Positions 13,821-47,699 of a stretch of DNA of 64,000 nt are shown one piece after another (positions within the stretch are counted from its first letter, which is position 1; each line of letters begins with the position of its first letter). The translations under genes and the position numbers were made by a program. The notes under the pieces are model-generated. The model did not search any database and was not told the origin of the DNA. It was given only the letters and a program-made list of their open reading frames with translations. The DNA is from a virus (Duplodnaviria; Heunggongvirae; Uroviricota; Caudoviricetes). The stretch covers positions 194,820-258,819 of the IMG/VR virus record IMGVR_UViG_3300031994_000003. One strand, written 5' to 3'.

Positions 13821-15017
13821 CTATCCATTGTGTTTTAATAGATATTCGCGTGAAACATTTTTAAATGAAAGTGTTTCATCAGTTGCTGATCTATATACAA
13901 AACCCTCACGCTTAACATTAGGATTAATTTTTGAATATCCATCAGCTTGTAATTTTAATTCTTCCATTGTATCTGGAAGTATATATTCAATATCAATAAT
14001 TGGAACCCACTCAATATTATCAATCTTACAAGAATCAAATAATGATATCGATTCGATTGGATTTAATCTTCTTACTTTATATTGATTCTTTTCTTTATTT
14101 CCTAATTTTAAATTAAATCCTCTAAATTCAAGACCTTTAATTTTATATGGATTACCTTGAATATCTCGACCATATGTTTCACCTTGTAAAATTACAATCT
14201 TTGAATTTGTTTCTCTACCAATTTTTACTAATGCATTTTCAATATTATATTGTTTTGCAATAGTATTATATACAGAATCTTCATTTAAGAACATTCTATT
14301 ATTTCTTGAACAAATTATAAAATTCCATTTTGTTTTCTTGCTATTTAAAAATTCAATAGCATATGTTGATGATGTTCCATCAACTTTTTCTGTAACAATT
14401 AAAGGTTGTTTATAATTTAAAATTTCAGGAATATTTTCACATCTTGTTTCATCAGTCTTTTTAATCCAAACAGGAAATTGTTTCTTAAACTTTAATTCCT
14501 CTTGTTTCTTTCTTATGAAATATTGTCTAATTTTAGGATGCTTATTAACAAATTTTTCAAACCATTTAAATCTAAACTTTAAAACAATCTTTCTTTCACC
14601 TTGTTTTCTTAAGAAGATTTCCTCAGCTGTTTCAATTTTCTTAATTCCTAAAACTTCTGTAACATCACGACCAATTGATAGATCTTCACCTAACTCAGGA
14701 AATAATGTGACAGGTAATGCTAGACCTTGTGAGATTACTCCAAATTTATTAAATTTTAATGTTTTAACCTTAAATCCTTTATTAGCTAAAAATGCGAATC
14801 TTGCATCAGCATCAGATACCTTTGAATCTATTTCAATATAAACACATTTATCTCCAATGTTAAATTCACCTTTCTTAGCAATTAAATTCCAGCCTAAAAC
14901 TGTGATTTTTTCAATAGCATCTGCACCATCAATTGATTCAATTGAATTAACCTTTTCAATATGTGCTAATGCTCTATTTTTTTCTTCGTTTTGATCTTTT
15001 ACTGTATAGATTTCCAT
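13821..15017 (-). CDS. ATP-dependent polynucleotide ligase (RNA ligase-like nucleotidyltransferase)
   Basis: The lysine-adenylation motif KxDG (TEKVDGTSSTYA) is present. It is preceded by a roughly 200 aa N-terminal domain, as in DraRnl-type RNA ligases. There is no KxDGxR arginine. Confidence 0.5.
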   Translation of the reverse strand: MEIYTVKDQNEEKNRALAHIEKVNSIESIDGADAIEKITVLGWNLIAKKGEFNIGDKCVYIEIDSKVSDADARFAFLANKGFKVKTLKFNKFGVISQGLALPVTLFPELGEDLSIGRDVTEVLGIKKIETAEEIFLRKQGERKIVLKFRFKWFEKFVNKHPKIRQYFIRKKQEELKFKKQFPVWIKKTDETRCENIPEILNYKQPLIVTEKVDGTSSTYAIEFLNSKKTKWNFIICSRNNRMFLNEDSVYNTIAKQYNIENALVKIGRETNSKIVILQGETYGRDIQGNPYKIKGLEFRGFNLKLGNKEKNQYKVRRLNPIESISLFDSCKIDNIEWVPIIDIEYILPDTMEELKLQADGYSKINPNVKREGFVYRSATDETLSFKNVSREYLLKHNG

Positions 15018-15183
15018 TATTTTTATCCTTCTTGTTATCTTTATAATTATAATATAAAATAATGTTTATTATATATATTGCTATAATAATACACACTATT
15101 ACTAAAAATATTATTCCTAATACCATAGATAATATATCCATAATATCACCTCATAATATTAATACGTAAAAAAATAGAAGCAA

Positions 15184-16647
15184 TTATGCTTCTATTTTTA
15201 CTACGTCATATCTTGGATCAGATAATACTTTCATCATATATTCATATGGTGTTGTATTTAATGAACCAAGTAAAGTCTTGAAAATTGATGCTGATGCACC
15301 AGATACAAGTTGAACGCCTTTCTTTGAAGTATCTGCTAAATGGAAAACCTCTTGACGAGAATTAACATTCCAGAATACAATTCCAGGAATCTTATAACCA
15401 GCATCTTCAAACTTAGCTTTTGTAATATCATAAAACTTTGTAAAACCACGTTCAACTGCACTATCAAATTCCATATCTGAAATTATGATTAATGACTTTG
15501 GCATATCCTTTTGTGGTGCATTTGCCTTAACAGCAGTATCTAAAATTAACTCCATTGCCTTAATGATGTCTGTAGATCCACCCCAGTCGGCACGCATAGT
15601 AGTGCCAATCTTAGCTTTTAATGTAGTTAATTTAGCAAGAGAAACAAATGCGGGTCTAGTGGAGAATGTTAAGAATAAATCTTTAAATGCTCCAACATTA
15701 TGTTCAGCAAAATAAATTGCTAAACCAACAGCCGTATCAATTGGTTGGCCACCATCCCATGTCATAGAACCAGAGGTATCTGCCATAACCAATACATTGT
15801 TTTCTCCATCAATGTAGTTTGGTAAAGCCTTCCATTGCTCTTCTGCTAATGCATCACCTTTCAATGAAGAACGCACTATATCATATGGATATAATACACT
15901 AGCATTTACCTTAGTCTTTCCAGCTTTTAAATCTGCAAGATATTTTTGATATCTTTCTGTATCATGACGCATAAATGCTGCTGAATATTTCTTCATTGCA
16001 TATGCTGGAACTTTAGAGTAATCGATATCAGTATAGTTCTTTTCAACTAACTTAGATTCAACAATATTAATTTTCTTTCTTAATACTGTTAATGCTTTAC
16101 GATATTCTCTTGGTGTCATATTAAAATGACCATATGTCTTTCTAGCTAATTTCATAGCCTTTCGAGAAGCATTTTCAGATTTTAACCATTTTCCTAATAA
16201 AGAAACTTGCTTGTTATTTTTTGCATTTTCAATATCTTCTTTGAATTGATGTAATAAGAAATCATATGCTTCCTTTTCAATTAAAGTGCCATCAAACGCA
16301 TAACATAAATCCCATCTATTAAACTCAGCAATTAAACCAATATTTAATTTCATTACTTCTGGGTCATTATTAGCTAACCATCTTAGGATCATAGAAGTTG
16401 CTCTTCTTTCACCTAAACCTCTACGAATATCAGCAGCATAGAATAAACATTTTAAAGCAATAAGCTTATCTGTATTATATGCTTTTTCAAAAATTTCTAA
16501 ACACTTTTCTTGATCAAGTGTTCTCATTGCACCAATGGTACCAAATAAATCTACTAAGAAATCATTTGTTGATTTATATGCCTCCATACCATTTTCTGTG
16601 ACTGTTTCATTTTGTTGAGCCATAGCTCCTTTAATAAATTTGTTCAT
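15184..16647 (-). CDS. vWA-domain protein with Ro60/TROVE-like architecture
   Basis: A helical N-terminal region is followed by the MIDAS motif DTSGSM and a vWA-like C-terminus. Length is 487 aa. Confidence 0.45.
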   Translation of the reverse strand: MNKFIKGAMAQQNETVTENGMEAYKSTNDFLVDLFGTIGAMRTLDQEKCLEIFEKAYNTDKLIALKCLFYAADIRRGLGERRATSMILRWLANNDPEVMKLNIGLIAEFNRWDLCYAFDGTLIEKEAYDFLLHQFKEDIENAKNNKQVSLLGKWLKSENASRKAMKLARKTYGHFNMTPREYRKALTVLRKKINIVESKLVEKNYTDIDYSKVPAYAMKKYSAAFMRHDTERYQKYLADLKAGKTKVNASVLYPYDIVRSSLKGDALAEEQWKALPNYIDGENNVLVMADTSGSMTWDGGQPIDTAVGLAIYFAEHNVGAFKDLFLTFSTRPAFVSLAKLTTLKAKIGTTMRADWGGSTDIIKAMELILDTAVKANAPQKDMPKSLIIISDMEFDSAVERGFTKFYDITKAKFEDAGYKIPGIVFWNVNSRQEVFHLADTSKKGVQLVSGASASIFKTLLGSLNTTPYEYMMKVLSDPRYDVVKIEA

Positions 16648-16698
16648 AATTATTACCTTTCCTTTTCTTTTATTTTTTATAATTTATTAATTTTATTT

Positions 16699-16773
16699 TG
16701 GTGACCCCAGCAGGATTCGAACCTGCGATGGCAGATAGAAAGTCTGCTGACTTAGCCACTTGTCGATGGGGCC
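16699..16773 (-). tRNA. tRNA, probably Glu (anticodon TTC; a TCT reading is possible)
   Basis: Cloverleaf GGCCCCA...GCAGA-CTTTCTA-TCTGC...GCAGG-TTCGAAT-CCTGC-TGGGGTC-A-CCA with the CCA encoded. Position 37 is a U, which is unusual. Confidence 0.7.
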
Positions 16774-17038
16774 AAAAAAAGATGAGATATTACATCTCAT
16801 CTTTTGGAGGTAGGTATATGTTATAATTATTATCAGATCATATGGCAAATATATAATATGCTCATTCGTGATGTGCTTATATATTTCAGCATGCAAATCC
16901 ATATGTCCGTAAATCTTTTCAACAATAATTATAACATGCGCATATCTAGATACTTTTTGATTTACTTTTAACCCTAATTTTTAATATTGTTCTTCATGGT
17001 ATAAAAAATATTTTTTTGATTTTTTGTATTTTGTAACA

Positions 17039-17056
17039 TTGCTGTGTGTATCTAAT
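17039..17056 (+). repeat. direct repeat copy 1 TTGCTGTGTGTATCTAAT
   Basis: One of four copies of the motif TTGCTGT-RYGTAYCTAWW in the 640 bp intergenic region. Each copy is preceded by a T-tract. Confidence 0.6.
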
Positions 17057-17133
17057 GCGTATTGTTTATTATGCTAGGTACTTAAAATTAACAGTATTAT
17101 CCCAAATATAATCGTTATCTTTTAAATTAATCA

Positions 17134-17151
17134 TTGCTGTATGTACCTATA
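17134..17151 (+). repeat. direct repeat copy 2 TTGCTGTATGTACCTATA
   Basis: See copy 1. Spacing from copy 1 is about 95 bp. Confidence 0.6.
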
Positions 17152-17215
17152 TAATAGTAATATGTTTAAGGAATTTACTAGATACAAAAAACTTCACCCT
17201 AGTTCTTTTTTTTAT

Positions 17216-17233
17216 TTGCTGTACGTATCTAAT
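17216..17233 (+). repeat. direct repeat copy 3 TTGCTGTACGTATCTAAT
   Basis: See copy 1. Spacing from copy 2 is about 82 bp. Confidence 0.6.
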
Positions 17234-17321
17234 CCTTTATTCCTTATTTATTTTTCCCTTCCCAAAATAAGTTACTAGGTACAAAAAATATTTGTGTTGA
17301 AGACAAACTTTCTGAAATTTT

Positions 17322-17339
17322 TTGCTGTATGTACCTATA
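17322..17339 (+). repeat. direct repeat copy 4 TTGCTGTATGTACCTATA
   Basis: See copy 1. Spacing from copy 3 is about 106 bp. It is followed by GGAAAGGAGG. Confidence 0.6.
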
Positions 17340-17547
17340 GGAAAGGAGGTTCTATATTGTATAGAAGATAAGAAAGTAATCAAAGATCATAGATCTTTTT
17401 TATTGGAGGAAATCAATTTATTAAATATCTTATATTATTTAATATTTTTCTTTCTTCTATACACAATTATAATATATACTTAAAAATAAATTTATAAATT
17501 TAAGTATATATATTTTATTGTTCATATCACTTTTTTTAAAAATATTT

Positions 17548-27603: not shown

Positions 27604-27692
27604 TGGAGGATAGGGTCGGATTCGAACCGACGCGGACCGACGTCCCTAACAGTGTTGCAGACTGCCCTCTTCAGCCTCTTGAGTACCTACCC
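27604..27692 (-). tRNA. class II (long variable arm) tRNA with Cys anticodon GCA and U73
   Basis: GGGTAGG-TA-CTC-AAGAGGCTGAA-GAG-G-GCAGT-CTGCAAC-ACTGT, then variable hairpin GGAC-GTCG-GTCC, then GTCGG-TTCGAAT-CCGAC-CCTATCC-T-CCA. The D-arm is nearly identical to that of tRNA-Ser(GCT) at 30557. Confidence 0.6.
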
Positions 27693-29430: not shown

Positions 29431-29433
29431 TCA

Positions 29434-29506
29434 TGACGACATCGGAATCGAACCGACAACCTCCTGCGGCTAAGCAGGCGCTCTCCCTTGTTGAGCTAAT
29501 CGTCCG
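29434..29506 (-). pseudogene. aberrant tRNA-like element (good D- and T-arms, odd anticodon loop TTAGCCG, no encoded CCA, 1-72 mismatch)
   Basis: GGACGAT-TA-GCTC-AACAAGGGA-GAGC-G-CCTGC-TTAGCCG-GCAGG-AGGTT-GTCGG-TTCGATT-CCGAT-GTCGTCA. The apparent anticodon AGC has a pyrimidine at position 37. Confidence 0.45.
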
Positions 29507-29765: not shown

Positions 29766-29812
29766 TGGTGGAGATGAGGGGAGTCGAACCCCTGTATTGA
29801 ACTCCTATTCAT
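29766..29812 (-). pseudogene. truncated tRNA (3' half only: T-arm plus acceptor 3' strand plus CCA)
   Basis: AGGGG-TTCGACT-CCCCT-CATCTCC-A-CCA is present. No matching 5' acceptor strand or D-arm lies upstream. Confidence 0.45.
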
Positions 29813-30140
29813 TTATTTTCTACATGTTATTTAATTTATTTTTACCATTATACTCATAATTAACAAAAGAATATAATTCCTTAAAATTCTTATGGCGAAT
29901 TTAATACCACCAACGCTTAACTGAACTACTTTATAATTTGTTGGCAATTATATTTCGTTTTTAAATTTTATATTAAATTTAAAATATTATTGCTTAGGCA
30001 AAAACCACTTGGTTGATCATTGCGTTTGCGATTAATTTGTTTGCGTTTATTTCTAAACCTCGACGTTGTTAAGGCAGTCTGCTACCCATGCTTATAAATT
30101 TCAAAAAATCCAAGCGAATACCAAAAAACATCCCCATAAC

Positions 30141-30236: not shown

Positions 30237-30557
30237 TTATTTTTCATCAGTATAAAGTGATAATAGCTTCTTTATAAATCTTTCTAAAGAAGGAGCAGTA
30301 TAATCTTCTGTTTCTCCAAGAACTTGAACTGTAATATCTGTATTACTATCAAATCTTAAAGTTAATAATCCTAAAATAGATTTACCATTAACATAACTAA
30401 AATTTCCTAGTTTAATGTTAATTTCATCAGATGTAAATTCTCCTGCTTTTTCTACAAATGCTGTTGCGAAACCTAAGTTTGATGGTTTGCAATTTTCTGG
30501 AATTGTTACTGTAAATGTGCGCATATTTTTTTGTTCTCCTTTTTTTGTATTATACAT
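30237..30557 (-). CDS. HPr-like phosphocarrier-fold protein lacking His15 (Crh/HPr mimic)
   Basis: Aligns with HPr: TFTVTIPENCKPSNLGFATAFV vs TFKVTADSGIHARPATVLV (His15 replaced), and NGKSILGLLTL vs NLKSIMGVMSL (Ser46 region conserved). Length is 106 aa. Confidence 0.55.
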   Translation of the reverse strand: MYNTKKGEQKNMRTFTVTIPENCKPSNLGFATAFVEKAGEFTSDEINIKLGNFSYVNGKSILGLLTLRFDSNTDITVQVLGETEDYTAPSLERFIKKLLSLYTDEK

Positions 30558-30737: not shown

Positions 30738-30825
30738 GGTGTTCTAGATAGGATTTGAACCTACAAATGATGGCCAGTCACAAAGGGCAATAGCCCTTCT
30801 GCATTCGCCTCATGCGAGCTAGAAC
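30738..30825 (-). pseudogene. aberrant tRNA-like element with the anticodon arm replaced by a stable GC hairpin
   Basis: Acceptor GTTCTAG/CTAGAAC, D-arm GCAT-GAGGCGA-ATGC and T-arm GTAGG-TTCAAAT-CCTAT are good. The anticodon position forms AAGGGC-TATT-GCCCTT, a 6 bp stem with a 4 nt loop. The alternative 7-nt loop CTATTGC gives a nonsense anticodon ATT. CCA is not encoded. Confidence 0.45.
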
Positions 30826-33521: not shown

Positions 33522-34241
33522 TTATATAACATAATTGTTAAATTCTTCTATTTCTATTGGTTCAAACATTTGTCGTTCAATACATACACATTGACTATTT
33601 ACTGTTTTAGTATGATATTCTGCTAATGTAATTTTATCTTTTGTCATTGAATGAACATGTCCATAGATAAAGAAGAATGGTACATTTTGATTCATTTTAT
33701 CAGGTCTAAATGGTATATGACTTAATATAAAATGTTGTTTTAAAACAGTTCCTCCTCCTCGTCTGAAAGGAATAACTTCTTTAAATCCAGCATTTTCATA
33801 AAATGATTTAGGCAAATTATCATGATTACCCATTATCATTCTTTTTTCACCATTAAGTTTTCCTACTAATTCTCTTAGGTATTCTTTATTACCCATACCA
33901 AAATCACCTAAAAACCAAACTGTATCTGAATTCTTAACTTTTTTGTTCCATTTATAAACTATCATATCATCATGATATTTTAAAAATGTTTTTATTGTTT
34001 CTAAATCATTATCTTTGAATGCTTTGTTAATAATATTAACCCAATCATCAACAGATTTTTCATTAGAAACATGCTCAATAATATATTCTGCAGTAGCATA
34101 GACTCTACTGGGTTCATATTTCAATATGTTTTTATGATTAAAATGAAGATCGCTAATAAAATATGTTTTCATATTTTCATCCTCCTTTATAATATTTTCT
34201 GGCAGGGCCGGCATGATTCGAACATGCGATGACGGAGTCAA
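33522..34241 (-). CDS. calcineurin-like metallophosphoesterase (Ser/Thr phosphatase-like)
   Basis: Motifs ISDLHF, FLGDFGMGN, MGNHDN and YGHVHS. Length is 239 aa. Confidence 0.65.
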   Translation of the reverse strand: MTPSSHVRIMPALPENIIKEDENMKTYFISDLHFNHKNILKYEPSRVYATAEYIIEHVSNEKSVDDWVNIINKAFKDNDLETIKTFLKYHDDMIVYKWNKKVKNSDTVWFLGDFGMGNKEYLRELVGKLNGEKRMIMGNHDNLPKSFYENAGFKEVIPFRRGGGTVLKQHFILSHIPFRPDKMNQNVPFFFIYGHVHSMTKDKITLAEYHTKTVNSQCVCIERQMFEPIEIEEFNNYVI

Positions 34242-34275
34242 AGTCCGTTGCCTTAACCAGCTTGGCTACGGCCCT
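34200..34275 (-). tRNA. tRNA-Gln (TTG)
   Basis: AGGGCCG...ACGGA-CTTTGAC-TCCGT...GCATG-TTCGAAT-CATGC-CGGCCCT-G-CCA. Confidence 0.85.
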
Positions 34276-34434: not shown

Positions 34435-34510
34435 TGGTGGAGTCAATGGGGATTGAACCCACGACCTCCTGCGTGCAAAACAGGCGCTCTCCCAACTGAG
34501 CTATGGCCCC
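34435..34510 (-). tRNA. tRNA-Ala (TGC)
   Basis: GGGGCCA...CCTGT-TTTGCAC-GCAGG...GTGGG-TTCAATC-CCCAT-TGACTCC-A-CCA. The G3-U70 Ala identity pair is present, with one C5-A68 mismatch. Confidence 0.8.
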
Positions 34511-35504
34511 AAGTAAAGACTCCTTAGACATCTTAACCAGATGATAAGGATAGCTATTCCTCTCATCCTAAGGTACATCTTTACACTGATTTTAGATTGA
34601 TAGACCTCGTATTTAGTAAATGTACTAATAGCTTTAACACAGCCAAGTTCATTATTATTCCTAATAATTTTTGCTTCTAGACATATCTATTTTTTTGTCT
34701 AAAATTGAGGTATCGTAGATATGACCTAATATTTTGCACTAACACATAATGCTTACCTAGACGATGGAAAATATTAGGATTTATATTTATCTACTAACAG
34801 GTACAACCTGCTCATCTAGGGTACGTTCCCTAGAGTTCCCTTTGCTAACGTGTCCGGTGGGTGGGCTGTTGCAACAGCCGAACGGGTTTTAATGTGTTTC
34901 ACGCAGTCTTTCCTTCAGCCGCGCCCCGTCGCGGATTGGGTTCTTTTTACGTTTATTCCTTACGGGTTATCCAGTTACGTGATTTAAGCCGCAGCACCAT
35001 TTCTGGATCACTTATTCCTTCTGGGTTTAAACGACCATGCCTGTTTTCTTTAATCCGTCCGCCATGCTCTTTAAAAGAGTTTAGGTTAGAGTGATCGTTG
35101 TATGGTTTTCCTTCCATTGGAACAACTAAGTTCCTCTATTAAAATCCATTGAGCGAGGGCCGTGGTATTTCACATTCAGACCCTCAAAACTGTCAATTGA
35201 ATGATATTCTAAGCGTCATTCCCGCAAGTGCATGTATTTATTTATTGTGCGCCCCCTTATACACAGGCCCATAGTGGTATAGTAGGTTAGGTACTATACA
35301 CCCTTCTTTGTTCAGGCATTCCTCCTGAAAAGTTATTTATTAAACCTTTATTCTCCTACCCTTTTATATCAGGCTGACCTGCTTTGCCTACACAATCCAA
35401 GTTATCTCAACTAAATTGCTTCCAACGAGTTTATCTACTTTCGTAGTATCAAGGGTACAGGTCAATATTTTAATATAATTATTAAATTATATAAATATCA
35501 TTTC
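34511..35504 (-). ncRNA. large GC-enriched structured non-coding region, candidate large ornate ncRNA (ROOL/GOLLD-like class) between tRNA-Ser and tRNA-Ala
   Basis: About 1 kb has no ORF longer than 77 aa. The core from about 34790 to 35460 is conspicuously GC-richer than the AT-rich background. It contains many perfect local hairpins (GGCTGTTG-CAACAGCC, CCGCG..CGCGG) and long-range complementarity (GATCACT at 35001 with AGTGATC at 35087). It is flanked on both sides by tRNA genes on the same strand. Strand is assumed from the flanking tRNAs. Confidence 0.5.
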
Positions 35505-35591
35505 TGGCGCCGACTGAGGGATTCGAACCCCCAAACCTTTTACGGCCGACGGTTTTCAAGACCGCTGCATCCGCCACTCTGCCAAGCCGGC
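35505..35591 (-). tRNA. tRNA-Ser (TGA), class II
   Basis: GCCGGCT-TG-GCA-GAGTGGCGGA-TGC-A-GCGGT-CTTGAAA-ACCGT-variable arm-GGGGG-TTCGAAT-CCCTC-AGTCGGC-G-CCA. Confidence 0.85.
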
Positions 35592-38139: not shown

Positions 38140-39879
38140 TTAATCTTTTGTAAATTCGTATAATGTTACTACGCAGTCTTTACCAATTTGAGTAAGGCCT
38201 CTAATAACTTCTCCATTAGGTCCGACTAAATTAGATTTTGAGAATGTAAGTTTATCTGCTTCTTCATTTGCTTGTATAGAATAGACGCCCCTTATGAACA
38301 CTGTATCACCATCATAGTCTGCACCCATTGCTTTAATAACACCATTACCAAGTATTGTTGTTCCTACAAATTCATAGTATGATGATGGTCTTATTCTAAA
38401 ATAATTCTTATCTGAACTAATTCTGTCATCATCTTTATATGCATCTAATAACATTTCTATAGTTTCTTGATTAGTATATATAAATGGATATCTATCATAA
38501 TAAAAATAATCATCACTATCTAAATCTAATTTAAGATATACTTCTCTTGTTTTTGCAGTAGAATTAATTAACACTCTTGCAGGATAAATATTCTTAATAT
38601 TTGTAACTGGGTGTCTTGTAATTAATACATGTTTATTCTTAACAGCTTTTTGTGCAGCCATCATAAATATATCTGCATATGTTAAACGACGAATATGAGC
38701 ATTTCTATTATTCTTTGCATCTGCTTCACTAGTAAATTCATAAATATTTGGACATACGACCATTTCTTCATTTGTTTGTCTGTCTTTTATATCAATACTA
38801 AATTCATCAAATCTTTCTTCACCAGACTTAATGAATCTACTCATCATTTTTTCAATATCATTCATTGATATTTGAGATACACTTAATTTAATATTTGTAT
38901 TATAATTATTATAAATAGTTGTTAAAATATCATCATTAATAATTTTATATGCTTCATGTACAATAAATGGGTGAAATGCACCTAATACTGATATTAACGT
39001 AATACCGGCGTAACCGAATGGAACGACTGTTTTATCCATAGATTTTGTATCTGAAATAACTGGTGCAACAATAACTGTATATGCACCATAATCAATAGTC
39101 TTACCAATTAAACTACGTTTTAATAATGAATTTTTTGAATTTCCAACAAATTCATTTGTTTTTGTATTTAATGATTTTCCAGTAATAGGTCCCATTGTAA
39201 TATTATATAATTTTAATAATGTATTTTGAATTCTAGTTCTAGTAGCATTACCAAAGATATCAAAATCAAAACTCATTTTCATTGAACGACAAGCAGAAAT
39301 TAACTCTTTATATGTTTGATTAATAACGTCACCTAGTGATCTTGAGTCTGCTTGCTCTTCTCTATAAAATGGCGGTAATACTAACCATTTGCTTACAAAG
39401 AATTCTTCTTTCTTTAATAATTGTAAGAATTTTAATCTTGTTTTCTTATCAATAGAATCTATTTCAGATTCTTCAAGTTCATCAATCCATTTGATCTTAT
39501 CAAAATTATTATAAATAAAATCCAATCCTGTTTCGGCATGGGGCGTATCTTCAGGAACAGTTTTTATCTTCCTATTACCATCAACAATAGCATATTTCTC
39601 ACCAATAATAATATCTCTAATATTACTCATTCTACTTGAAATAATAGAATAAACAACTGGATTTATATAATAACCTTTTAGATCAATATAACCAAATATA
39701 TTCTTTCTTTCTTCTTCTGAATAACCAAATATTTCATATGAAAATAAGCCATCATCAGTTGGTAACTTATTTGGTTGCCAGAAAATTGGATTCGTAACTT
39801 CTTTACATCCATTTAATTTTATAAATTCATCAATATTAAACATATCTAGAATCATTAATATCACCAAATTTCTTTTCAA
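38140..39879 (-). CDS. multisubunit RNA polymerase beta-prime subunit, N-terminal part (split subunit)
   Basis: GLFSYEIFG and NIFGYIDL match beta-prime GLFCAKIFG and RMGHIEL. The catalytic loop GADYDGDTV matches NADFDGD and lies near the C-terminus of the 579 aa ORF. Confidence 0.75.
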   Translation of the reverse strand: MKRNLVILMILDMFNIDEFIKLNGCKEVTNPIFWQPNKLPTDDGLFSYEIFGYSEEERKNIFGYIDLKGYYINPVVYSIISSRMSNIRDIIIGEKYAIVDGNRKIKTVPEDTPHAETGLDFIYNNFDKIKWIDELEESEIDSIDKKTRLKFLQLLKKEEFFVSKWLVLPPFYREEQADSRSLGDVINQTYKELISACRSMKMSFDFDIFGNATRTRIQNTLLKLYNITMGPITGKSLNTKTNEFVGNSKNSLLKRSLIGKTIDYGAYTVIVAPVISDTKSMDKTVVPFGYAGITLISVLGAFHPFIVHEAYKIINDDILTTIYNNYNTNIKLSVSQISMNDIEKMMSRFIKSGEERFDEFSIDIKDRQTNEEMVVCPNIYEFTSEADAKNNRNAHIRRLTYADIFMMAAQKAVKNKHVLITRHPVTNIKNIYPARVLINSTAKTREVYLKLDLDSDDYFYYDRYPFIYTNQETIEMLLDAYKDDDRISSDKNYFRIRPSSYYEFVGTTILGNGVIKAMGADYDGDTVFIRGVYSIQANEEADKLTFSKSNLVGPNGEVIRGLTQIGKDCVVTLYEFTKD

Positions 39880-41106: not shown

Positions 41107-42644
41107 TCATCAGATTTTGGCGTAAAATATCCACCATCATAAACTTTAACAAATGGAACTAATGTACCACTTGTTCCTGGATCACCAGCATTAGATGCAA
41201 TTAATGATAAACGTCCAGTATAACTTGGATGTAATGAACGTTGATCTAATGAAACTGTACTAGAATATGCTTGAGGTCCATGGAATGTATATCTTAATAA
41301 TGCTCCATATAAATTAAATTCATTTGTTGAATTGAAATAATGAAGTAATTCTGAAGTTATACATTCTTTAATTAATAGCATTGGAGTTAATCCAGTAAAT
41401 ATTTTTTCAATATTTTGAACACTTACTGTAGATGAACTGAATATTGTATAAATCTTATTTCCAAAATATGCTCTTAATGGGAATAATAAATATTCATACA
41501 AACGAAGACGCTTATTTGTTAAATCTTGTCCATCAGCATTTGCTAATTCATCAAAATTTAACATAATATATTCCATAATTGTAAATACATCTTTCTTATA
41601 TTTACTTGGAATTCTCATAATTTTTCTAGTTGGTTCATCAATTAATCTCTCTAATGAGATAAATACTCCTTTTGCTTTTTCATATTTCTTAAATATGTCA
41701 GTAGTTTGAGAAAATGCATCAGTTAATTTATCTAACCAATACCACATATTTGTTAAATCTTCATATGAGAAAACAAGATTCTTTTTCTTATCTTTTTTCT
41801 TTGGAGATTTACAAAAACCAAATAATGCTAATGCTGCTTGATAATTTGGTTCATTAATTTTTTCAGTTGGTACGGAGTAATATACACCTTGAGTTTTATC
41901 TCCTTTAACTGAAAAGACTGTTCTGTCATCTTCAACTAAGTCTGCATAACTATTTGAAAATTTTATATCTGTTTTCAAGTATTCATTAAAATAATCAAGT
42001 ATTCCATCATCTTGTTCTGCTAAAAAAGCATCTACATCATCAATAACAGGATGTTTTTCAACTAATTTATTTAATGCATATTTACTCATAATATAAATTA
42101 ATGGTGATACACATTTTTCAAATGTTGCAAATTCAAATATTGGCATATCAGTTAAATTAACAGCACCATTTTCAGATTCCATGTTAAATCTATTATTTAC
42201 TAACATTGTGATTGGCATTGTCATAGCCTTAAATGAAGTTCCTCGTCCAAAACCATAACTTGAAGAATCTACAATCTGCCAAATTAGGAAATAACGAATA
42301 CCTTCATTAATATAAAATGTTTTATCTAACATTTTATTAATATATAAATCTCTCTCAATTGGTTTATCTAATCCATCAATAGTAACTTTATAATGAATCT
42401 TATTTAATCTTGATGGGGCAACAGCTTTATAATATTTTCCTTGTTGCTTAATAGGACCAAAATTAGATTCATCTGTCTCTAAAGTTATATCTTCTCTATT
42501 AATATGGATTTGTGGAATAATTTTTAAATCTTCAAATATATCCCTAACTTTTTCTAATATTTCTGAATCATCTCTTGACATGATAAAGTCATCATTAAAT
42601 TTTTCAGGAAGCCTATCCATATATCTAGATAATAATTCTTTCAT
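41097..42644 (-). CDS. multisubunit RNA polymerase beta subunit, N-terminal part (split subunit)
   Basis: RSLHPSYTGRLSLIASNAGDPGTSGTLVPF near the C-terminus matches the beta motif [25 protein letters not shown]. Confidence 0.65.
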   Translation of the reverse strand: MKELLSRYMDRLPEKFNDDFIMSRDDSEILEKVRDIFEDLKIIPQIHINREDITLETDESNFGPIKQQGKYYKAVAPSRLNKIHYKVTIDGLDKPIERDLYINKMLDKTFYINEGIRYFLIWQIVDSSSYGFGRGTSFKAMTMPITMLVNNRFNMESENGAVNLTDMPIFEFATFEKCVSPLIYIMSKYALNKLVEKHPVIDDVDAFLAEQDDGILDYFNEYLKTDIKFSNSYADLVEDDRTVFSVKGDKTQGVYYSVPTEKINEPNYQAALALFGFCKSPKKKDKKKNLVFSYEDLTNMWYWLDKLTDAFSQTTDIFKKYEKAKGVFISLERLIDEPTRKIMRIPSKYKKDVFTIMEYIMLNFDELANADGQDLTNKRLRLYEYLLFPLRAYFGNKIYTIFSSSTVSVQNIEKIFTGLTPMLLIKECITSELLHYFNSTNEFNLYGALLRYTFHGPQAYSSTVSLDQRSLHPSYTGRLSLIASNAGDPGTSGTLVPFVKVYDGGYFTPKSDEEE

Positions 42645-44083
42645 TATATAAACACCCCATCTTGATAAAGGCCATCTTCTTCAACAACCTGTTCATTATT
42701 ATTAATTTTTTCTTCTAATCTTTCAGACATAAATGCCCTTTTAGTTTCCAAATCAAATTTATTTAAATATTTTAAAATTCTTTCACCTTGACCACACATT
42801 ACCATATATGCAACTTGACCTTTTGCTTTTTGCATATCAATATTAGTATCACCATGAGCATAGTTATTAATTGTTACTCTAAGATGTCTATACAAATATC
42901 TTCTATTTGTTGGTTTATTATTATTGGTATGATCAAATGCGATTGATGTAACATTTCTATATTGACCAGTTTGGCCAAACATTTTTTCAGGTTTTAATGT
43001 AAAATATTCAATTAAACCATTTTTAGTATAAACTCTTTCAAATATATTTGTAATTAAATTCTTTGAAATTGGTCTATCAGATGAAAATGTTATATCATCA
43101 CAATATTGTGTAAAAGTAATTCCTGTTGATCTACAAATATTATAAATATCTCTTGCAGATTTTGCTACTATTTGATTTGCAATAATTGGAGAAATTGGAT
43201 TACCTAAACATAATCCATTATCAACTAGCATTTTATCTAAAAAATATTTCATTAATGAATATCCACGATATGAATCATTAAAAGCATATCTTACAACTCT
43301 TGTTACTAATGGTCTCTTACATGAAGGGAAAAAGTTACTAATATCTGCTTTTTCAATATAACGATGATCTTTATGTGGATATGCGTTGTCAATTATAGAA
43401 GACCCACTCTTATATGCAATTTGAATTCCTCTATTAATATCTTCATATGCTAATTTAAAGAATTTATTTAAATCTACTAATGAATCTAATATTTCATCAT
43501 TAGGTTTTGATAATAAACGAACTTTACCATTTGGCATAGTTCTTTCAAAATTAAAATAGATAGACTTATGTGTTCTATCTAATATTTTACATCCTACAAT
43601 TACTTTAAGAATTTGTGGATTTACAAATATCTCAAAATTATGTTCAGCTGATTGAATTACTGAAACCGCATCTTGTATTCCTTTGAATATATCTCTAACA
43701 AATATATTTTTTACTAAATCATTTTCATATTTATAATATAAATGTAATTCAGCTTGTGAGAATGTTGCACTACCATTTTGTTCATTTATTTTTGTTATTA
43801 TTTTAAATAAATATATTCCATCTTCTTTTAAATAAAATCTCCATATTCCTTCACTTTTTTCATTTTTGATATAATATAGATTATCACAAAAAGATTTATA
43901 ACTTATAGCGTTACGAACAACGTGTGCATCTTCAATAGCTCTACGCTCATCGGCTTCAAATTTTTCAATATCAGTTATTTCATTTTCATTAATTGGATAA
44001 AATATAAGACCATATCTATTTACATTTAATTGGTCTTGTGCAAAGCACAATATTTTTCCTCGATATTTAAACATGCGAAACAC
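42644..44083 (-). CDS. reverse transcriptase-like protein with roughly 190 aa N-terminal extension
   Basis: RT motif 2 KADISNFFPSC (D-I-x-x-F-F-x-S), motif 4 GLCLGNPISPIIANQ (QG..SP-like) and motif 5 YCDDITFSS (YxDD), in the correct order and spacing. The stop overlaps the start of the beta N-part gene. Confidence 0.7.
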   Translation of the reverse strand: MFRMFKYRGKILCFAQDQLNVNRYGLIFYPINENEITDIEKFEADERRAIEDAHVVRNAISYKSFCDNLYYIKNEKSEGIWRFYLKEDGIYLFKIITKINEQNGSATFSQAELHLYYKYENDLVKNIFVRDIFKGIQDAVSVIQSAEHNFEIFVNPQILKVIVGCKILDRTHKSIYFNFERTMPNGKVRLLSKPNDEILDSLVDLNKFFKLAYEDINRGIQIAYKSGSSIIDNAYPHKDHRYIEKADISNFFPSCKRPLVTRVVRYAFNDSYRGYSLMKYFLDKMLVDNGLCLGNPISPIIANQIVAKSARDIYNICRSTGITFTQYCDDITFSSDRPISKNLITNIFERVYTKNGLIEYFTLKPEKMFGQTGQYRNVTSIAFDHTNNNKPTNRRYLYRHLRVTINNYAHGDTNIDMQKAKGQVAYMVMCGQGERILKYLNKFDLETKRAFMSERLEEKINNNEQVVEEDGLYQDGVFI

Positions 44084-44095
44084 ATGCTCCTTTCT

Positions 44096-44326
44096 TTATT
44101 CTATTCCTTTTATACAAATTTTTGTATTAATTTCTTCTCCGGCCTTTGATATAAAATTCACTTCAGCATATGTTGCATCATAATCTACACTTACATAAGT
44201 ATTTACATCTTCACCAAGATTTGTTGAAGCTCCAACTACTGATTCTATAACATCATCAAATGAATCAGCAGTCACTTCTTTAAATAATTCATCCTTATAT
44301 GATATTTCATAATTTTTATTTTTCAT
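44096..44326 (-). CDS. hypothetical acidic protein (76 aa)
   Basis: Intact ORF immediately upstream of the RT gene. Confidence 0.3.
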   Translation of the reverse strand: MKNKNYEISYKDELFKEVTADSFDDVIESVVGASTNLGEDVNTYVSVDYDATYAEVNFISKAGEEINTKICIKGIE

Positions 44327-44391
44327 ATTTGCTCCTGAAATTTAAGAAGTATTCAGGAAAAATACTTCTTGAGTAATGCCTACAAAGAAAG

Positions 44392-45503: not shown

Positions 45504-47699
45504 CTATTCATCTTCTTCCAAATTATCATCTAATTTTAATTCAAGTACAGATAAATAGTTATCTAAAATCTGTCTTGTGATTGGTTTGTATTCTAATTTT
45601 CGTGCATTAATACTTAATGGATTTTTAGCTGTAACTAATTGTTCAACTAAATCTTGACGATCATCCATTGAAGTAGAATATGTACGAAGTAATTTTGCTA
45701 CTAAATCTGGGCGTTTAGTAACAAATAGTGCCTCAGTTTCCATTTCACCAAGACGTAATGGGTTATCATTATAAAGTGCTTTACGTTCTTTTCTAAGTGT
45801 TGATTTAGAAGGCATGTTTTTAATATTAAGCATACCTTTAGAACGAATTGAAAGTTTATTAGAGCTTTCATGTTTTAGTCTTATAAAATATTCATCGCCA
45901 ATTATTAATGGCTTTTCAATATTTTCACATTTATATTTTGTAACCCATTCTGGATGATCTTTAAATAATTCAACAAGATCTTCCATTTTTGTATTTCCAA
46001 CGAATGGTGGCTCATGAATATAAATACCGTCTTCTATAACTTTATCTAAAAAATCATGTGCTTTTACTCTATTCATTGTCATCATCTCAATATCAACAAA
46101 TTCATTTTGTTCTTTATTGATATGTTTTAAGAAATCTAAATAGATTTCTTTCTTTTCTTCATATGTTGGAGCTTCTTTCATTGCTTCAACAACATGATCT
46201 GCTATGAAATTGATATATTGTTCAAATAATTGTGCTGGATTAATACGTCCAATTACACCAAGTGGATTTAAACAAATATCTGCTCTATGCTTACCATCAG
46301 CAGTATGCGGCATTAGATCATCTGGAAGTATTGCTGAACAAACACCTTTATTTCCATAGCGTCCGGTACATTTAGCACCAACTGTTAATGGATTTTCTTT
46401 TAATATTGTGATTTCTAATTTGAAATTATCATATCTCTTTCCATCACTTCTCCATGAAATACGATCATCAATATACTCATGTGCATACTTCCATTTATAA
46501 TCTAAATCATCAGTATATTTATTTTTATTTAATGTTCGTTTTAATGGACGTTTGTAATAAAATCCATATTCTTTACGTTCTTGAATATAAGCATCTCTTT
46601 CTGTTCCAGATAAAGATTCTAAATATTCTTCTTCCGTATAAGCTGGAATTATTGTTTCTAATAATTCTGCTAATTCTTTATAATAATTATATTGCTCCTC
46701 GTAAATCTTTACAATTTCTCGTAAAAATTCATTACCATTTTTATTATCTTTTCCATATGCTTTCTGTTTTAATAATTTCAATGGAGCATTAGAATAAATG
46801 TTAATATCTGCAACTTCTCCACCACATGTGTAATAGATTTGGTCTGTTATATCAATTTCTTTCATTCTATGTTGTTGAAAATTATATAAAACATTTTGAG
46901 AATCTTCTCTTCTTGATGCAACTAAAATATTTCCTTTAGTATGCTCGCCAACTTTTGGTATTGAATGATATTCTGGAATTTCTTTATCCTTTTCATAATC
47001 AGAATATAGATTTAATAAAATATCATTTGTATTTACAGAGATTGTTGTTTTCTCAACTTTAAAACTTGTTAATTTCTTTGCGGCAGATTCAGAAATAACA
47101 AATCCATCTTCATAAGTTAATCCATATGCTGGAAGATAACATGCTTTAAGATTTACACCATATGCAAAATTACCATCATCATCATAGTTATCAGACTTAT
47201 AAATAAATTCATTTTCCTTAACTATATCCCCAACTTCTCTATCACTTAAACAATCATTAACACGATATCCATACTCTTCACAAATATTTACTGCATGATT
47301 AACATCAATACAATCATAAATACCATTGTCATATTGAACAACTAAAGTATAATTAGCTGCATTCTTACGAACTTTACCAATTATTCTAAATTGTCTTTGA
47401 GCTTTCTTATATGCAATAGAATATTTACCAACTTGATTTTCAAATCCTGTAAATATTTTTGGAAATTCTGGATTCTTTAAATGTACTGTTTGATTAATGT
47501 GGTTAGAAAACATTTGAAGTCTTTGCGTATCACAGTTATTAACAAATGGACTCAATAATTCTTCACTAAATGGATAGTGAGGATTTTCTTCTGCATCCTT
47601 TGGAATATTAAAATTAAAATAAGGTGTATTATCAGAAATTTTTAATGTTTTCTTTTTCTTTTTTTGTTGGGCTTTCCACTCTTTAAAGAAATTTGCCAT
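45504..47699 (-). CDS. multisubunit RNA polymerase beta subunit, C-terminal part (split subunit)
   Basis: GRYGNKGVCSAILPDDLMP and LNPLGVIGRINPAQLFE match beta GRHGNKGVISKINPIEDMP and LNPLGVPSRMN. RLGEMETEAL...STSMDD matches the beta C-terminus KFGEMEVWALEA...TVKSDD. Confidence 0.8.
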   Translation of the reverse strand: MANFFKEWKAQQKKKKKTLKISDNTPYFNFNIPKDAEENPHYPFSEELLSPFVNNCDTQRLQMFSNHINQTVHLKNPEFPKIFTGFENQVGKYSIAYKKAQRQFRIIGKVRKNAANYTLVVQYDNGIYDCIDVNHAVNICEEYGYRVNDCLSDREVGDIVKENEFIYKSDNYDDDGNFAYGVNLKACYLPAYGLTYEDGFVISESAAKKLTSFKVEKTTISVNTNDILLNLYSDYEKDKEIPEYHSIPKVGEHTKGNILVASRREDSQNVLYNFQQHRMKEIDITDQIYYTCGGEVADINIYSNAPLKLLKQKAYGKDNKNGNEFLREIVKIYEEQYNYYKELAELLETIIPAYTEEEYLESLSGTERDAYIQERKEYGFYYKRPLKRTLNKNKYTDDLDYKWKYAHEYIDDRISWRSDGKRYDNFKLEITILKENPLTVGAKCTGRYGNKGVCSAILPDDLMPHTADGKHRADICLNPLGVIGRINPAQLFEQYINFIADHVVEAMKEAPTYEEKKEIYLDFLKHINKEQNEFVDIEMMTMNRVKAHDFLDKVIEDGIYIHEPPFVGNTKMEDLVELFKDHPEWVTKYKCENIEKPLIIGDEYFIRLKHESSNKLSIRSKGMLNIKNMPSKSTLRKERKALYNDNPLRLGEMETEALFVTKRPDLVAKLLRTYSTSMDDRQDLVEQLVTAKNPLSINARKLEYKPITRQILDNYLSVLELKLDDNLEEDE

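Follow-up and report, generated by a model that had tools for sequence, protein, structure and literature searches.

A probable array of structured noncoding RNA cassettes among the tRNA genes of a rumen-type jumbo phage

The DNA analyzed here (the window) is a stretch of 64,000 nucleotides from the IMG/VR virus record IMGVR_UViG_3300031994_000003 (Caudoviricetes; positions 194,820 to 258,819 of that record), and its subject is an interval of about 1 kb, window positions 34511-35504, which an initial annotation had singled out as a candidate large ornate noncoding RNA (ncRNA). As that annotation had stated, the interval lies between tRNA-Ser(TGA) and tRNA-Ala(TGC) genes on one and the same strand, here corrected to minus: ARAGORN places tRNA-Ser(tga) at 35505-35591 (Rfam tRNA model, 52.1 bits) and tRNA-Ala(tgc) at 34435-34510 (62.6 bits). 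Because both flanking tRNAs are on the minus strand, the RNA reads from 35504 to 34511, with tRNA-Ser upstream and tRNA-Ala downstream, and features of the interval are given below on that strand unless stated otherwise. Region coordinates (reg N) count down from window position 35504 on the minus strand, the window coordinate being 35505 - N. The window carries 29 tRNA genes and one tmRNA (29766-30135), all on the minus strand according to ARAGORN and Rfam, as are the genes neighboring the interval, and the tRNAs of the phage cover all 20 amino acids. The window is part of an AT-rich, rumen-type jumbo phage with AR9/phiKZ-like multisubunit RNA polymerase (RNAP) genes: an open reading frame (ORF) at 38140-39879 shares 25-33% identity with the RNAP beta' proteins of AR9, vB_BsuM-Goe21, Staphylococcus, and phiR1-37-type jumbo phages, an ORF at 45504-47699 carries an RNA polymerase Rpb2 domain, and a 332,878-bp contig on record encodes proteins identical to those of the window.

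The GC enrichment noticed at first sight was borne out by a sliding-window analysis, with values of 0.40-0.52 in 200-nt windows over 34700-35399, compared with 0.20-0.30 in the flanking coding DNA. Block by block, GC content is 0.40, 0.39, 0.45, and 0.52, with two AT-rich spacers at 0.05 and 0.30. The first spacer (35468-35504, 5% GC by block composition) follows tRNA-Ser; the second is a 3' tail (34511-34792, 30% GC) for which no homolog was found and which contains a strong hairpin (34520-34574) just before tRNA-Ala.

The absence of a credible ORF in the interval was likewise confirmed. The longest has 77 codons and lies on the plus strand (34861-35094), and an ORF of 54 amino acids lies on the minus strand. 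Each of the six frames is interrupted by 13-30 stops, and recoding cannot rescue any ORF because all three stop codons are abundant in all six frames. No small ORF of the interval has a Pfam match, and a phmmer search of the 77-amino-acid product against 1.84 billion representatives returned tandem-repeat proteins only, with scores summed over up to 20 repeats. A 41-amino-acid antisense ORF of the conserved module described below as C was searched for miscalled genes in relatives, and nothing was found. The 77- and 54-amino-acid frames could be taken as remnants of a coding gene, and three successive third-position differences between the window and a relative (L004, see below) just past the motif ATGGAAGGAAAACCAT have a coding look. 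However, an indel in the L004 copy of this motif breaks the frame (MEGKPF*), and the repeated occurrences of the AACCC..AAGGAA unit do not share one frame. Together with the stop codons, the lack of Pfam matches, and the repeat artifacts from phmmer, this leaves next to no probability for a protein gene, whether intact, degraded (the alternative that the initial annotation had itself raised), or written in another genetic code.

The interval was then compared with known RNA families using the 4,227 models of Rfam 15, at gathering score on the 64-kb window and at E <= 10 on positions 34450-35560. Nothing within the interval reached a gathering score, and at E <= 10 the region yielded nothing more than end portions of the two flanking tRNAs and, at 13.3 bits, a similarity to cow-rumen-1. 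The proposed assignment to the ROOL/GOLLD class fell here: ROOL (RF03087) was matched neither at its gathering score of 99.1 bits in the window nor at E <= 10 in the region, although the same search detected it at 253, 274, and 173 bits in three relatives (L039, L064, and L072), and GOLLD (RF01998) was matched neither in the window (E <= 10 on the region) nor in the array of any relative. Searches with the tmRNA, RNase P RNA, group I and II intron, HEARO, raiA, and OLE models gave no match in the region at E <= 10, in keeping with the earlier failure to recognize a tmRNA or RNase P RNA by eye. YrlA and Y RNA are without an Rfam match in the region, which also has no GNCGAAN0-1G motif and no tRNA-like element, and both drum (RF02958, cut-off 43 bits) and skipping-rope (RF02924) are absent from the window. 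Several resemblances that had been noted by eye did not survive: group I intron P/Q/R/S-like words (UUGCGGGAAUG and AAUCCGCG), an RNase P CR-I-like word (GGAAAGAC, with UAGAUGA), and a 23S-like word (GUGAAAUACCAC) were contradicted by the model searches and alignments, a GGAAAG resemblance was not borne out by the Rfam searches, and a hammerhead-like GAUGAG plus hairpin, which no GAAA follows, was dropped after the model searches and alignments.

No match to the region came up when 50,697 INPHARED phage records were searched by blastn, the exact probe CCGCGACGGGGCGCGGCTGAAGGAAAG had no match in IMG/VR, and the neighboring 147-amino-acid protein used as a query led to only one close relative. 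One locus, L003, is about 97% identical and spans the first 230 nt (reg numbering). RNAP beta' homologs led to L004 (58% protein identity), which has a 920-nt noncoding gap in its tRNA array that shares words with the interval; L001, L006, and L007, also reached by synteny via RNAP beta', have no tRNAs and no homolog. The 16-mer ATGGAAGGAAAACCAT gave 55 matches, about the chance expectation, and only L039, a 109.8-kb IMG/VR contig reached via this word, proved real. Conserved probes then yielded L064, eight further JGI metagenome contigs (L066-L074), L075, and L077; within the genome collection, L077, from a rumen Clostridiales metagenome-assembled genome (MAG), was the one real copy of module C, next to one chance match (L076). 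By blastn, the homologous parts are reg 262-357 (module C), reg 355-406 (module D), and reg 613-706 (the core of B RNA, 76-80% identical), and comparison of the entire 64-kb window with the same loci found no ncRNA homology beyond the interval. All homologs come from metagenome samples. A rumen origin is explicit for the RUG177 MAG of L077 and is matched by the cow-rumen origin of ROOL; for the remaining homologs, the dataset series suggests a rumen habitat. The L077 copy occupies positions 1-70, at the very start of a 12-kb contig (ONCR01000053.1, uncultured Clostridiales RUG177), and either points weakly to the lineage of the host or is a piece of phage DNA that was binned in error.

Module C (35148-35243) combines an H-type pseudoknot (35199-35225), in which GCG/CGC crosses GAAUGA/UCAUUC, with a hairpin, S2 (35155-35185; GAGGGUC/GGCCCUC), whose 17-nt loop is UGAAUGUGAAAUACCAC. 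It has blastn homologs at ten metagenome or viral loci (L039, L064, and L066-L074; 85-97% identity) and is also present in L075 and L077. All copies share the sequence ...AGCGGGAAUGACGCUUAGAAUAUCAUUCAYUUGAYAGUUUUGAGGGUCUGAAUGUGAAAUACCACGRCCCUC. The S2 loop is identical in 10 of the 11 aligned copies, with one change in L075 (ACAAC for ACCAC), and the S2 stem, GAGGGUC/GRCCCUC, varies through G-U wobbles only. The window copy has each of the elements by which the family is defined, namely the crossing pseudoknot helices, the S2 hairpin, and its loop. Across the 11-sequence alignment, 95.2% of cells are paired, compared with 32-47% in slid controls, and double changes occur in three pairs: GAAUAA/UUAUUC in L068, GUG/CAC in L075, and AU to UG at columns 25/37 in L071. 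The 5' part of L071 was misaligned by MAFFT, and its stem was read by eye as GAAUGC/GCAUUC. In L064, L068, and L072, module C retains 90-92% identity, compared with only 53-60% for an HPr-like protein encoded nearby, so the RNA is under stronger constraint than this neighbor.

Module D (35099-35150) adjoins module C. It is 79% identical to L039 by blastn and 90.6% identical in L071, where it is contiguous with C, and its hairpin GGAAC-UUAGUU-GUUCC (35119-35134) has a compensatory GAAAC/GUUUC in L071. Module C is like the drum (RF02958) and skipping-rope (RF02924) RNAs, reportedly described by Weinberg et al. in 2017, in being small, highly conserved, and intricately folded; the function of those RNAs is unknown. 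It differs from both in its own pseudoknot-plus-hairpin fold and in having no terminator after it.

B RNA runs from 35118 to about 34793 and comprises a first hairpin (H0), a 91-nt hairpin, two AAGGAA-loop hairpins with AACCC linkers, and a core of 101 nt. H0 (35102-35117; AUGG-AAGGAAAA-CCAU) presents a Shine-Dalgarno-like loop, and hairpins of this type are found two to three times per array in relatives. The 91-nt hairpin (35006-35096) is recovered in the minimum free energy (MFE) fold and is closed by GAUCACU/AGUGAUC, the longer-range GATCACT/AGTGATC complement to which the initial annotation had drawn attention. By eye, it corresponds in position to a hairpin found after H0 in L039, L066, L070, and L074 (CCAC..GUGG / CUAG..CUAG), which shows a compensatory UUAG/CUAA among relatives. 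Next come CGU-AAGGAAUAA-ACG (34950-34964), found by hairpin scan, and H1 (34901-34924; GCGCGG-CUGAAGGAAAGA-CUGCGU), which has an AAGGAA loop and aligns with GUCAG-AAGGAAAA-CUGAC of the relatives. The H0 and H1 stems of the relatives read UGG/CCA, UAG/CUA, GUCAG/CUGAC, GUUAG/CUAAC, GGAG/CUCC, and GAC/GUC. A further stem quoted at the outset, GCCGCGCCCCGTCGCGG (34919-34934), is present; it is specific to the window and competes with a conserved hairpin.

The core of B RNA (B-core, 34793-34893) consists, in order, of UUAAAACCCGUUC, H2, CACCCACC, GGACACGUUAGCAAAGGGAACUC, H4, GAUGAG, and H5. H2 (34864-34879; GGCUGUUG/CAACAGCC) is the stem that had been quoted as GGCTGTTG/CAACAGCC, and it is conserved and covaries in relatives, its length being 16-18 nt in the window, L039, and L064 and 68 to about 130 nt elsewhere between conserved flanks. 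H4 (34815-34834; CUAGGG/CCCUAG) appears in relatives as CAGAA/UUCUG, CAGAG/CUCUG, UCUUG/CGAGA, or UCUUGA/UCAAGA, and H5 (34796-34812), the last hairpin, as GUGAGG/CCUCAC or GAUGAG/CUCAUC. The linkers of B RNA are almost invariant across relatives while the stems vary. A covariance model (R1) was built from seven relatives without the window and covers AAAACCC-UUUGG, H2, CCACCCACC, CA(C/G)GUUA(A)GC..GGGAACUC, the variable hairpin, and H5 with its GGUUG loop. Only H2 and H5 were annotated in it; H4 was left out, and its covariation was judged by eye, because MAFFT and RNAalifold misaligned this variable hairpin. R1 matches the window at 34793-34893 on the minus strand over its full length (model positions 1-107; 56 bits, E = 4e-11) and has no other significant match in the 64 kb. 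Pairing in H2 and H5 amounts to 91.9%, compared with 33-52% for slid controls; 8 of the 12 pairs have double changes, and none of 500 shuffles reached the score. The copy in L004 scores 13 bits only (E = 0.82), and its membership is uncertain.

The alignments also identify the functional strand. G-U pairs are frequent (UG seven times at columns 61/81 of the module C alignment; GU seven times at columns 18/105 of the B-core alignment), and because such pairs would become A-C mismatches on the plus strand, the minus strand is the RNA strand.

Some features of B RNA are seen in relatives. Two B stems contain a tRNA-like element, in L070 (1800-1865, minus strand; 26.5 bits), where a 4-nt GCGA cap replaces the anticodon loop, and in L075 (5746-5885, minus strand; 30.5 bits), with a 67-nt insertion in the anticodon region; by eye, the end of the L039 array seems to carry an acceptor/T-arm minihelix. 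On the 3' side of the second AAGGAAAA hairpin, L039, L004, L066, L070, L074, and L075 have AUG, UUG, or GUG 7-10 nt past the Shine-Dalgarno-like loop. The mini-ORF starting there has four codons (M-T-T/A/I-I/S-stop), its start-codon position varies only among canonical starts, and the window copy has no start codon. It could be due to chance or be a minigene, in the style of the bar minigenes of phage lambda. Tandem GGAAGGAAAACC / AAACCCGU units that resemble B-RNA words also occur in an unrelated small viral contig (L009 7170-7560 and L057), where the AAACCCGU repeat may encode a KPVK-repeat peptide.

Upstream of module C lies a lineage-specific 5' domain (M1/M2, 35245-35467; MFE z = -0.96), whose only homolog is the approximately 97% identical L003; a 28-nt probe from it had no exact match in IMG/VR. 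It contains a GNRA hairpin, CUAC-GAAA-GUAG (35435-35446), a CAAU..AUUG hairpin (35393-35418), and further hairpins at 35311-35329 and 35274-35303. A pseudoknot is possible, pairing GACCUG (35458-35463) with CAGGUC (35376-35381) and UACCCUU (35451-35457) with AAGGGUA (35357-35363). In L003, the CUAC/GUAG stem has become CCA/UGG around an unchanged GAAA loop, and CAAU/AUUG has become CAGA/UUUG, both of them compensatory changes.

How the conserved parts are arranged bears on whether the interval is one RNA or several. The window has the order C-D-B, while B precedes C wherever both are visible in relatives (L039, L064, L066, L070, L072/L073, L074, and L075), at a distance of 190-390 nt and with differing intervening sequence: a drum-like element in L068, L072, L073, and L074, another module in L064, and a short linker in L075. 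The drum-like elements lie immediately upstream of C and score 26-37 bits, below the 43-bit cut-off (37 bits in L068). The arrays of relatives also hold ROOL (L039, L064, and L072), apart from the B and C homologs, and skipping-rope (L064). These arrays are free of ORFs over more than 2.3 kb; L070, a 2.4-kb contig that begins just past a TATTGTATAAT-type promoter, has no 70-amino-acid ORF on the RNA strand and a single antisense stretch of 71 amino acids at the contig end. Since order, inserts, and independent RNAs vary between arrays, the unit of conservation is the cassette and not the whole interval, and that C precedes B only in the window argues for cassettes that are separable. The region is shown to be noncoding, conserved, covarying, strand-specific, and modular. 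We consider it probable that the interval is a short array of ncRNA cassettes, a piece of a phage "ncRNA island" among tRNA genes that is read from the minus strand. Of the original idea of a large ornate ncRNA, the structured noncoding region therefore stands, and a single conserved RNA of about 1 kb does not, as only C/D (35119-35243, about 125 nt) and the 101-nt core of B RNA (about 330 nt in all) have homologs.

The single-RNA idea nevertheless deserves a closer look, since the phage tRNA-island niche expected for ROOL and GOLLD was confirmed. ROOL is a phage and prophage ncRNA near tRNA islands, first seen in the cow rumen and of unknown function (PMC5737381, PMC12286853), and both GOLLD and ROOL are tRNA-island RNAs that self-assemble, with GOLLD having bound ribosomes in pull-downs (PMC12286853, PMC5737381). 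GOLLD has a 3' region that is conserved and a 5' region that is less so, sometimes with tRNAs within the linker (PMC12286853), and B RNA is similarly laid out, with its conserved 3' core, variable 5' half, and embedded tRNA-like elements in relatives (L070 and L075); this is a likeness in organization and not homology, and B-core has a length of only about 100 nt, while GOLLD exceeds 800 nt. ROOL shares the niche and even the arrays of the B and C homologs, but it forms one molecule of about 580 nt that has six multistem junctions, whereas the units here, of about 100-330 nt, shuffle independently. That the flanking tRNAs would free one molecule of about 1 kb, and that B and C accompany each other in all relatives whose upstream flank is long enough, L004 excepted, which could mean that they work jointly, would fit a ROOL/GOLLD-class RNA of some 0.7-1 kb folding as a unit, perhaps divergent or circularly permuted. 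On the other side stand the absence of a ROOL or GOLLD match at E <= 10 while ROOL itself is found separately in relatives, the inversion of C and B relative to the relatives, where unrelated modules separate the two, the 5' domain and tail without homologs (other than the near-identical L003 for the former), and the failure to find a conserved long-range helix joining the parts of the interval. Taken together, this makes one unitary RNA unlikely. The physical product of the cassette array may still be one RNA of about 1 kb, since genuine tRNAs bracket the interval and no convincing internal minus-strand promoter or terminator is seen.

Several points weigh against the cassette reading, and they are considered here together with another explanation, namely that the interval is nonfunctional spacer, recombination debris between tRNA genes that is GC-rich from decayed tRNA or ncRNA genes. 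(i) No homolog beyond the 97% identical relative was detected for the 5' domain, the 3' tail, and a large part of the 5' half of B, which together make up about half of the interval. (ii) Folded singly, the three GC-rich blocks have ordinary energies (z = -0.75 to -1.04); for the whole interval, z was -3.6 (minus strand) and -4.2 (plus strand), based on only 20 shuffles. The evidence for structure is comparative, not energetic, and "highly structured," as the region was first called, is not supported by the thermodynamics. (iii) Variation within module C is so low that its double changes total just three. (iv) The B-core alignment was model-fitted, some variable stems having been trimmed before model building, and the covariation was drawn from 7-13 related sequences, all of one habitat. 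(v) No partner protein is consistently adjacent among the loci. The first two points suit a spacer, as do the mosaic order and the standing of tRNA islands as recombination hot spots (compare the differing tRNA order in L004). However, debris would not be expected to keep module C at 85-97% identity across loci whose neighboring protein is 53-60% identical, to hold the 17-nt loop of C in 10 of 11 copies and the linkers of B-core near-invariant, to maintain helices through compensatory changes, or to vary stem lengths between fixed flanks. The spacer explanation is thus highly improbable.

If the interval is a cassette array, its expression can be sketched. No strong or convincing minus-strand promoter or terminator was seen within the interval, so it is probably cotranscribed with the tRNA array. 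The RNA would then be released by the tRNA maturation enzymes, with RNase P cleavage at the 5' end of tRNA-Ala setting its 3' end and 3' trimming at tRNA-Ser setting its 5' end. The precursor would be about 1 kb long, perhaps trimmed further to stable B and C/D species, and these may act as RNA scaffolds or decoys on translation or tRNA machinery taken over by the phage. By analogy, such a role is the most likely one, because B shares the GOLLD-like layout, tRNA-like inserts in relatives, and AAGGA hairpin loops; that it is proposed by analogy alone counts against it, and it is speculative, with low confidence in any specific target.

The AAGGAA loops also suggest a more specific role, in which B RNA would be a sponge whose AAGGAA(A/U)A loops mimic Shine-Dalgarno or CsrA-type ANGGA sites and titrate the 30S subunit or a CsrA-like regulator. 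The motif occurs four times, compared with 0.66 expected (reached in 3 of 500 shuffles), three of the four lie in hairpin loops with covarying stems, and AAGGA is the commonest ribosome-binding-site 5-mer of the phage, being the most frequent 5-mer upstream of its start codons (14 of 47 ORFs). A start codon and four-codon mini-ORF 7-10 nt past the first loop in relatives, as read by eye, would agree with ribosome binding, but the window has no such start codon. CsrB carries roughly 18-22 GGA sites. With three or four AAGGAA-loop hairpins in the window and 2-4 sites per RNA, B RNA falls far short of this CsrB/RsmZ-type number, and a sponge cannot explain the conservation of B-core and of the C loop because these strongly conserved parts contain no GGA motif. 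We consider titration of this kind very unlikely.

A link with Ro60-like proteins was also considered, in which the modules would be Y-RNA-like partners of the phage's Ro60-like DUF2828 protein and, together with the RNA ligase encoded next to it, would serve a complex for RNA repair or quality control. The Y RNAs of bacteria and phages contain domains resembling tRNAs and are encoded on the strand of Ro60, no more than about 4 kb from it (PMC4201824), and ROT/TROVE proteins are encoded by some jumbo phages (PMC7824862). In L004 and L075, a DUF2828 homolog comes immediately downstream of the ncRNA array, the DUF2828 gene of the window adjoins an RNA ligase gene and tRNA-Glu, and tRNA-like inserts occur in the B RNAs of relatives. 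The window gene (15184-16647), however, is 18 kb distant, and no DUF2828 gene was found within the 13 kb of L064. The region has neither a YrlA (RF02553) or Y_RNA match nor a GNCGAAN0-1G motif; the window B RNA lacks a tRNA-like domain. In L070, the acceptor-like stem forms the open end and passes into the B helix, with the 4-nt GCGA cap in place of the anticodon loop. The topology of YrlA is the opposite of this. A Y-RNA-like role is therefore a weaker rival to the scaffold or decoy role and is itself highly unlikely.

Neither B nor C matches any Rfam 15 model, so the families are new while their kind, structured RNAs of phage tRNA islands, is known; no description of either turned up in the literature on phage structured RNAs, in which no search was aimed at these modules. 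Some similarity exists to cow-rumen-1 (RF02946), which has a hairpin with a conserved tail and the same habitat, and H2 of the window plus CCACCGGACACGUUAGCAAAGG aligns with its consensus cCgCCGGACAcGAUCGAAGAGG; scoring only 13.3 bits where the cut-off is 53.4 (E = 9), and not recovered in L074 or L075, this similarity is a lead and not a match. A bolder interpretation, which we put forward only tentatively and would not expect to hold in full, is that B and C are two undescribed phage RNA classes in multikilobase, ORF-free ncRNA islands whose cassettes (ROOL, drum-like, skipping-rope, tRNA-like, and new ones) are shuffled like the genes of defense islands, that B is a third scaffold class carrying tRNA-like elements beside GOLLD and ROOL, and that the island is a toolkit for translation takeover or counter-defense. 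If so, B would offer its Shine-Dalgarno-like loops and tRNA-like domains to the machinery of host translation or tRNA surveillance. Apart from that interpretation, the window holds the minimal form of B-core, 101 nt long and with short stems, and the locus shows that ROOL, like GOLLD an abundant and elaborately folded phage RNA, sits in rumen jumbo phages within larger arrays that also comprise other conserved RNA cassettes, at least two of which, B and C, are outside Rfam 15. Information on which cassettes co-occur, replace one another, or bear tRNA-like or ribosome-binding-like features gives handles on the function of tRNA-island RNAs.

Other features of the window, all on the minus strand, were noted in passing. 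Within the tRNA array, the tRNA at 29433-29505 (Rfam tRNA, 40 bits) has an undetermined two-base anticodon, "ag," and an 88-nt "tRNA-Asn(att)" (30738-30825) and an 89-nt tRNA-Cys (27604-27692) both have long extra arms. The tmRNA (29766-30135) encodes the tag ANKLIANAMINQVVFA. An HPr-like (PTS-HPr) ORF of 106 amino acids lies at 30237-30557, and its counterparts in the tRNA/ncRNA islands of relatives (L064 4853-5155, L072 2587-2868, and L068 1382-1660) are 53-60% identical. ROOL directly follows this ORF in L064 and L072; in the window, tRNA-Arg and the tmRNA are found there instead, with no ROOL in the 64 kb.

A retron-type reverse transcriptase (RT) of 479 amino acids is encoded at 42644-44083, between RNAP-subunit-like genes, with matches to PADLOC RT_II-A (107 bits), NCBIfam retron_St85_RT (118 bits, below the 235-bit cut-off), and Pfam RVT_1. 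In the 308-nt gap upstream of it (44084-44391), there seems to be an ORF of about 80 amino acids and no obvious msr/msd, and a retron link to the interval was rejected, the RT being 8 kb away and this gap apparently coding. An RNA-repair-like cluster at 13821-17345 comprises the RNA ligase (13821-15017), the DUF2828+DUF7788+vWA gene (15184-16647), and tRNA-Glu (16699-16773). At about 16940-17345, it includes four tandem units that open with UAG(G/A)UAC(A/G)YACAGCAA and close with GUAYCUAG 40-90 nt later, and they may represent regulatory sites or small RNAs closed by a stem. Finally, a metallophosphoesterase ORF of 239 amino acids with a TTG start (33522-34241) overlaps tRNA-Gln (34200-34275), and its true start is probably further downstream.

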